Source: Escherichia coli (GTDB taxonomy: Bacteria; Pseudomonadota; Gammaproteobacteria; Enterobacterales; Enterobacteriaceae). From it: a stretch of DNA of 64,000 nucleotides. Shown here piece by piece: positions 19,940 to 19,970 of this stretch. The stretch lies in assembly GCF_003334315.1 (NCBI RefSeq), contig NZ_QOWR01000020.1; one strand, written 5' to 3'. The first letter of the stretch is position 1; every line of letters starts with the position of its first letter. The translations under genes were made by a program, and so were the position numbers. Below the pieces are notes generated by a model. That model ran no database searches. It had not been told where the DNA came from and saw only the letters and a list, made by a program, of their open reading frames with translations.

Positions 19940-19970
19940 TATAGATGGGGGGGATTTTGAGGGTTTCAAC
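19940..19970 (-). promoter_or_regulatory. sigma32 heat-shock promoter of hslVU
   Basis: Minus strand reads TTGAAACCCTCAAAATCCCCCCCATCTATAAT: -35 TTGAAA and -10 CCCCATCT; overlaps the ftsN stop region. Confidence 0.65.

Follow-up and report, generated by a model that had tools for sequence, protein, structure and literature searches.

The feature at 19940–19970 is the RpoH (sigma-32) heat-shock promoter of the Escherichia coli hslVU (clpQY) operon, which is already known and catalogued. We consider, with a probability of about 90%, that the best explanation of the ftsN–hslV junction is an RpoH promoter of hslVU with the ftsN stop codon lying in its −35 element and with a hairpin that is shared by both genes. 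Publications and catalogues already cover the promoter and its sigma factor, as well as the start site and the leader hairpin. What is new here is modest: the placement of a published ftsN mRNA 3' end with respect to the promoter, the proposal that one hairpin serves two genes, and the conservation of the overlap between the stop codon and the −35 element.

The window, by which we mean the whole stretch of 64,000 nucleotides that was analysed, comes from an E. coli K-12-like chromosome. The 501 bases around the promoter match many complete E. coli genomes at 100% identity and were found in 5426 of 5426, and a 251-bp stretch of MG1655 (NC_000913.3 4122200–4122450) is identical to the window sequence. 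The offset of this identical stretch was used to convert published coordinates (window position = NC_000913.3 position minus 4,102,414). According to the list of open reading frames, the gene order on the minus strand is priA, cytR, ftsN, hslV, hslU, menA, and the intergenic spacer between ftsN and hslV is 92 bp long. The genes on either side of this spacer, together with the second gene of the operon, are as follows.

19966–20925, minus strand: ftsN coding sequence, 319 residues with a C-terminal SPOR domain, stop codon TGA at 19968–19966 (open reading frame list and RefSeq annotation).
19343–19873, minus strand: hslV, GTG start codon at 19873–19871, Shine–Dalgarno sequence AAGGGG at 19886–19881 (open reading frame list and annotation).
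18002–19333, minus strand: hslU, gene 2 of the operon (open reading frame list), the operon 3' end being at ~17948 (SMRT-Cappable-seq 4120362).

The GTG start of hslV is also named in the legend to Figure 1 of Lien 2009 (PMC2681174). At the far end of the operon the published 3' end (4120362; TRS 4120358–61; window 17948) lies ~54 nt past the hslU stop, beside the start of the menA reading frame, and its class in TRS is 'menA 5' UTR'. Read-through transcripts spanning hslV-hslU-menA-rraA have been published, so that the downstream junction of hslVU is leaky too.

Read on the minus strand, the sequence across the ftsN–hslV junction is GCC GCC GGG GGT TGA AACCCTCAAAATCCCCCCCATCTATAATTGCATTATGCCCCGTACTTTTGTACGGGGTTTGT or, written with the ftsN stop in register, GGG GGT TGA AACCCTCAAAATCCCCCCCATCTATAATTGCATTATGCCCCGTACTTTTGTACGGGGTTTGTACTCTG. 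The following elements were located in it.

19964–19969, minus strand: sigma-32 −35 element TTGAAA, matching at 6 of 6 bases; base 1 closes the Gly319 codon GGT and bases 2–4 are the ftsN TGA.
19943–19950, minus strand: sigma-32 −10 element CCCCATCT, matching CCCCATNT; a unique exact motif, with three further C immediately 5' of it.
19947–19953, minus strand: run of seven C seen in the sequence, reaching from the end of the spacer into the −10 element and setting the distance between −35 and −10.
19938–19943, minus strand: perfect TATAAT hexamer seen in the sequence, overlapping the 3' end of the −10 element; a candidate sigma-70 or sigma-S −10 element in the literature.
19934, minus strand: start of hslVU transcription at an A (SMRT-Cappable-seq 4122348), 8 nt past the −10 element and giving a 5' UTR of 61 nt.

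The −35 and −10 elements are 13 nt apart (14 nt when counted as TTGAA-N14-CCCCAT), which falls within the 13–15 nt of sigma-32 promoters, and the two hexamers agree with (C)TTGAAA and CCCCATNT, respectively. According to PMC10044804, the 50 promoters of Nonaka et al. 2006 most often have N14 between TTGAA and CCCCAT. An earlier note on this DNA had placed a sigma-32 promoter on the minus strand here, and both elements do indeed lie inside 19940–19970. Its further statement that the promoter lies 'partly inside the last codons' of ftsN is correct as regards the last base of Gly319 and the TGA, but the overlap is minimal, only 4 nt of the core being shared with the open reading frame (the last base of the final Gly codon and the whole stop codon). 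The spacer, the −10 element and the start site all lie within the 92-bp gap.

The exact pattern TTGAAA-N13-CCCCATNT occurs once on the two strands of the 64-kb window and is absent from all of 100 dinucleotide-preserving shuffles. When two mismatches are allowed the pattern is found at chance level (2 found against 1.77 expected in the window), as would fit the notion that the motif is a chance resemblance with no function. We give this notion practically no weight, since the exact match is unique and absent from the shuffles, the motif is conserved in at least 63 species and was tested genetically by Lien 2009, and the start site is at the expected distance; a chance occurrence was rejected on the shuffles together with the published mutagenesis. 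The sole other match to the sigma-32 pattern, at 50894–50920 on the plus strand (TGGAAATGTTAAAAAATCGCCCCAAGT), has two mismatches, a stringency at which matches are at chance level.

In heat-adaptation experiments the run of seven C (C7) has repeatedly been hit by deletions of 1 bp and 2 bp. A 1-bp deletion in the run (given as intergenic, −74/+19) was fixed in two populations rescued at a lethal temperature (PMC7750951), and a 2-bp deletion, C7 to C5, was found in a heat-evolved strain (PMC10044804). A shortening of the sigma-32 spacer from 14 to 12 is the explicit interpretation of the C7 deletion in one of these two evolution studies.

The assignment of the RpoH site goes back to Chuang 1993, as cited by Lien 2009 (PMC2681174), and hslVp is covered by the sigma-32 regulon analysis of Nonaka et al. 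2006, as cited in PMC10044804. In the account given by Lien 2009 (PMC2681174), clpQ::lacZ fusions and the native mRNA are heat-induced, and hslVU expression and mRNA are reduced in rpoH mutants, as judged from lacZ fusions and northern blots, but not in rpoS mutants. The same account has a C-to-T change within CCCCATCT lowering expression and abolishing heat induction, and a mutation of the putative RpoS −10 element, which overlaps CCCCATCT, having no effect. In Salmonella, RpoH ChIP found hslV bound in the control condition as well as during heat shock. The −35 and −10 elements, the seven-C run, the GTG start and the 5'-UTR stem-loop of the published hslVp are all the same as those in the window and there is no sequence difference; the one disagreement is between the stated leader of 71 nt and the 61-nt leader given by capped 5' ends. 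No mention of ftsN, its stop codon or an ftsN terminator was found in those published descriptions of hslVp that were consulted.

Three start sites of hslVU are in circulation (19944, 19939 and 19934), of which only 19934 fits the geometry of the −10 element. Lien 2009 (PMC2681174) places the first start site at 71 bp upstream of the start codon; a leader of this length would put +1 at 19944, within the −10 element, in conflict with 19934. SMRT-Cappable-seq, which catches triphosphorylated 5' ends in full-length reads, gives an hslV-hslU unit running from 4122348 to 4120362 in both growth conditions. The TRS table (PMC10687069) has 4122353 and 4122348, corresponding to 19939 and 19934, apparently in a column of annotated starts. 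The start-site supplements of Kim 2012 contain no hslV and no ftsN entry. We take 19934 as the best-supported start of hslVU. An hslV start mapping elsewhere would have told against the promoter as the earlier note drew it; the published capped 5' ends place the start 8 nt past the −10 element.

These start-site data also bear on a different explanation, namely that the active promoter is read by sigma-70 or sigma-S using TATAAT at 19943–19938 and that the sigma-32-like motif is secondary. The TATAAT does overlap the −10 element, and basal expression of hslVU persists in the rpoH mutant (PMC2681174). In vitro genomic SELEX lists the hslV/ftsN spacer under the RpoS holoenzyme, with a weak signal, and hslV was not found in the RpoH table in the main text of the same paper. 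In addition, a promoter calculator places predicted sigma-70 activity ~55 bp upstream of hslV, and the predicted activity becomes stronger after the change from C7 to C5 (PMC10044804). We nevertheless find this explanation very unlikely. No −35 element lies at 16–18 nt from the TATAAT, and a sigma-70 scan of 19300–21100 finds no site; the capped start is only 3 nt past TATAAT, which is too close, as against 8 nt past CCCCATCT; neither the rpoS mutation nor that of the putative RpoS −10 had any effect, whereas loss of rpoH or the C-to-T change abolished induction; and CCCCAT is kept across orders whilst TATAAT is not (in Erwiniaceae it is CCCCATATCTG). The TATAAT was accordingly rejected as the main −10 element on the distance to the start site and the published genetics. 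Given the basal expression seen without RpoH, a minor contribution from sigma-70 or sigma-S, or from ftsN read-through, is possible.

Having assigned the promoter to sigma-32, we turn to what lies just past its start site, where the following were located.

19908–19929, minus strand: hairpin GCCCCGUAC-UUUU-GUACGGGGU, from folding, beginning 5 nt after the start site, centroid −17 kcal/mol.
19871–19928, minus strand: match to Rfam RF02401 'ClpQY_promoter' (cmscan score 63.6 bits, gathering score 42, E = 1.8e-12), positions 1–57 of the 57 in the model.
19899–19907, minus strand: cluster of ftsN mRNA 3' ends (TRS), with its peak at 19899, 9 nt beyond the stem base, the RNA ending GGGGUUUGUACUCU-3'.

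The hairpin has a stem of 9 bp with 6 G-C pairs and a loop of 4 nt, a GC-rich stem as expected of an intrinsic terminator, and it is the only strong structure found by folding at the ftsN–hslV junction. As described by Lien 2009 (PMC2681174), an inverted repeat in the 5' UTR forms a stem-loop that is needed for the stability of hslVU mRNA; deletion or disruption of the stem-loop destabilises the mRNA and a compensatory stem (the R-IR mutant) restores stability. The ompA and papA leader stabilisers, which Lien 2009 cites, resemble hslVU in that a stable hairpin a few nucleotides from the 5' end prolongs the half-life, and likewise in hslVU it is the structure and not the sequence that matters, as the R-IR mutant indicates. 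The hslVU hairpin differs from them in being placed also as the structure that forms the 3' end of an upstream mRNA. The Rfam family describes a cis-regulatory 5' UTR element, matched here over its full length and above the gathering score; despite its name it covers the transcribed leader and not the promoter hexamers, and it is silent on any role at the ftsN 3' end.

The ftsN 3' end comes from TRS (PMC10687069), in which a minus-strand 3' terminus at 4122313 (4122313–4122321) is given in two data tables as 'Primary ftsN' with a 3' UTR of 68 nt. The end at 19899 fits the geometry of an intrinsic terminator, for which RNA 3' ends lie 7–9 nt past the stem, and makes the ftsN 3' UTR ~67–68 nt long. 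As the ftsN stop and the promoter overlap, no terminator fits between them, and the whole of the hslVU promoter, together with its start site and the hairpin, falls within the ftsN 3' UTR. The earlier note had supposed that the ftsN mRNA 3' end, and any terminator, coexist with the hslVU promoter. With a published terminus mapped past the leader hairpin this stands in so far as the 3' UTR spans the promoter, but the putative terminator does not overlap it, being situated 26–35 nt past the hslVU start, in the 5' UTR. The C7 run sits in this same 3' UTR, so that the heat-adaptation deletions also change the ftsN mRNA.

The sequence after the hairpin is UUGUACUCU. In E. coli the U-tract following the stem, UUUGUACUCU, is interrupted and has 5 U in 10, and a consensus scan did not call a terminator; the hairpin escaped the promoter and terminator scan because this U-tract is just under the scan criterion. 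A supplementary example of SMRT-Cappable-seq shows both a cytR-ftsN unit and an ftsN-hslV-hslU unit, indicating that transcripts both end and read through here. The Term-seq tables of Adams 2021, searched by gene name, by sequence and by coordinate, contain neither a 3' end on the sense strand nor a Rho-dependent region here, which suggests that the ftsN end signal is weak. Since ftsN–hslVU read-through transcripts have been published, we infer that the hairpin acts as a leaky intrinsic terminator of ftsN. The ends at 19899 could also be left by exonucleases that trim read-through RNA as far as the hairpin, or some of them could be hslVU transcripts that ended prematurely. A terminator-like hairpin 5 nt past the start would also be expected to attenuate hslVU, a point that counts against this reading.

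The Adams 2021 Term-seq data do contain a 3' end on the opposite (plus) strand, at NC_000913.3 4122347 (window 19933). Its position is 5 nt beyond the hairpin when this is read in the opposite direction; it has no U-tract and adjoins the minus-strand start at 19934. It could be the hairpin-protected end of an antisense RNA or a library artefact arising from the abundant 5' end.

For comparison we used 120 hslV loci from contigs representing one genome per species, found with a degenerate pattern anchored on the N-terminal codons of hslV and not on the promoter. A SPOR-domain open reading frame (ftsN) is directly upstream of hslV in the same orientation in 97 of the 120. The strict motif TTGAA-N13-16-CCCCAT is present within 320 nt upstream of hslV in 72 of these 97, separate from the stop codon in 9 and overlapping it in 63 (window included), and in all of the latter the ftsN TGA occupies bases 2–4 of TTGAA in constant register. 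When the TGA stop at that register in TTGA(A/T) is counted together with −10 variants, the number rises to 77 of 97. The register is kept while the identity of the FtsN SPOR domain drops to 33–50%, and over distances from the stop to hslV of 59–208 nt (88–208 nt in the 63 loci with the strict motif). The overlap is found in Enterobacteriaceae, Erwiniaceae, Yersiniaceae, Hafniaceae, Pectobacteriaceae, Morganellaceae and Plesiomonas and, outside the order, in Zobellella, Oceanisphaera, Alishewanella, Arsukibacterium, Alkalimonas and Thalassotalea; in several of these non-Enterobacterales ACT TGA AAA yields a perfect CTTGAAAA. This comparison shows the overlap of stop codon and −35 element to be old and to have been conserved in Enterobacterales as well as in some groups close to them. 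The compared sequences are related and the shared register is therefore largely inherited, so that the data show maintenance of the overlap register but no repeated origin of it.

In three Pantoea loci and one Budvicia locus (L067, L069 and L097, and L079, respectively) there is a GGGGTTGAAA...CCCCAT block ~92 nt before hslV, and the traced ftsN frame ends 50–100 nt earlier. The early end may reflect a genuine change at the C terminus or a frameshift, or else a fault of assembly; two of the four loci are metagenome bins. A recognisable SPOR-domain open reading frame within 1.5 kb upstream was missing from 24 of the 120 hslV loci, most of which are without the strict sigma-32 motif; the Pasteurellaceae are among them (L003, L008, L028, L058, L063, L064, L074, L085, L093 and L116). 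The ftsN–hslV linkage is thus not universal in Gammaproteobacteria.

A hairpin is found at every locus of the overlap type, beginning ~12–16 nt past the −10 element; the stem sequences vary and their complementarity is kept. RNAalifold applied to 26 orthologous leaders gives 9 pairs, with compensatory double changes at 8 of the 9. A U5–U7 tract comes after the hairpin in Pantoea stewartii, Candidatus Pantoea persica, Tatumella, Dickeya, Serratia and Rahnella, so that the hairpin looks there like a textbook terminator. Aeromonas, Photobacterium and Enterovibrio have the same gene order as E. coli and a CTTGAAA...CCCCA-type promoter before hslV, but there the end of ftsN lies ~100 nt further upstream, and between it and the separate promoter comes a canonical GC hairpin that has a U-tract. 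In E. coli, by contrast, the signals are interleaved, with the stop codon inside the −35 element and the putative terminator past the start site. The taxa without a separate ftsN terminator are those with a terminator-like leader hairpin, which supports a dual role for the hairpin.

The same comparison bears on the alternative that the hairpin is a 5' stabiliser of hslVU only, that ftsN has no terminator of its own and is co-transcribed with hslVU, and that the 19899 ends are decay or processing intermediates stopped at the hairpin. Vibrionaceae and Aeromonas keep a small leader hairpin besides the canonical ftsN terminator upstream; the weak U-tract of a hairpin that the terminator scan left uncalled, the lack of a sense-strand end in the Adams 2021 Term-seq tables and the observed ftsN-hslV-hslU read-through unit are consistent with this alternative as well. 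It has more difficulty in accounting for a discrete 3' terminus 9 nt past the stem in two TRS data sets, classed as primary, for a cytR-ftsN unit that ends after ftsN among full-length reads, and for the canonical U5–U7 tract on the same hairpin in many Enterobacterales. It also has to accommodate the observation that a separate ftsN terminator is found in exactly the taxa that do not have the overlap. On balance we think it unlikely.

Under the preferred reading, an RpoH promoter with the stop codon in its −35 element and a hairpin used by both genes, sigma-32 RNA polymerase recognises TTGAAA (19969–19964) and CCCCATCT (19950–19943) and starts at A19934, as published genetics and 5'-end mapping have shown. 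Transcripts of ftsN cross the promoter and the start site, there being no terminator before them, and a fraction end at ~19899, past the hairpin at 19929–19908; 3' ends are observed at this position and would have arisen by intrinsic termination. The remaining ftsN transcripts read through into hslVU, as seen in the published ftsN-hslV-hslU unit. The same hairpin, 5 nt from the 5' end of the sigma-32 transcript, protects hslVU mRNA from decay (Lien 2009), and one hairpin would thus serve ftsN and hslVU.

A broader and more tentative proposal, which we put forward as possible though rather doubtful, is that the ftsN/hslVU junction is a conserved module shared in both directions, in which the stop codon is fixed in the −35 element and the hairpin is both a leaky ftsN terminator and the 5' protector, possibly also an attenuator, of hslVU. 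If so, ftsN read-through would supply a basal level of HslVU that is independent of sigma-32, and the occupancy of the heat-shock promoter by polymerase could affect the formation of the ftsN 3' end. The HslVU protease degrades the division inhibitor SulA, and the module would link a cell-division gene to this protease.

The finding has little weight as a discovery, and its value is in a clean annotation: the ftsN 3' UTR is the same DNA as the hslVU promoter and leader. Because this DNA is shared, a mutation of the C7 run, of the stop codon or of the hairpin can have consequences for an essential division gene and for a heat-shock protease alike, which bears on the interpretation of the recurrent heat-adaptation mutations at C7. 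The junction also illustrates neatly how a stop codon can be kept within a promoter element across an order of bacteria.
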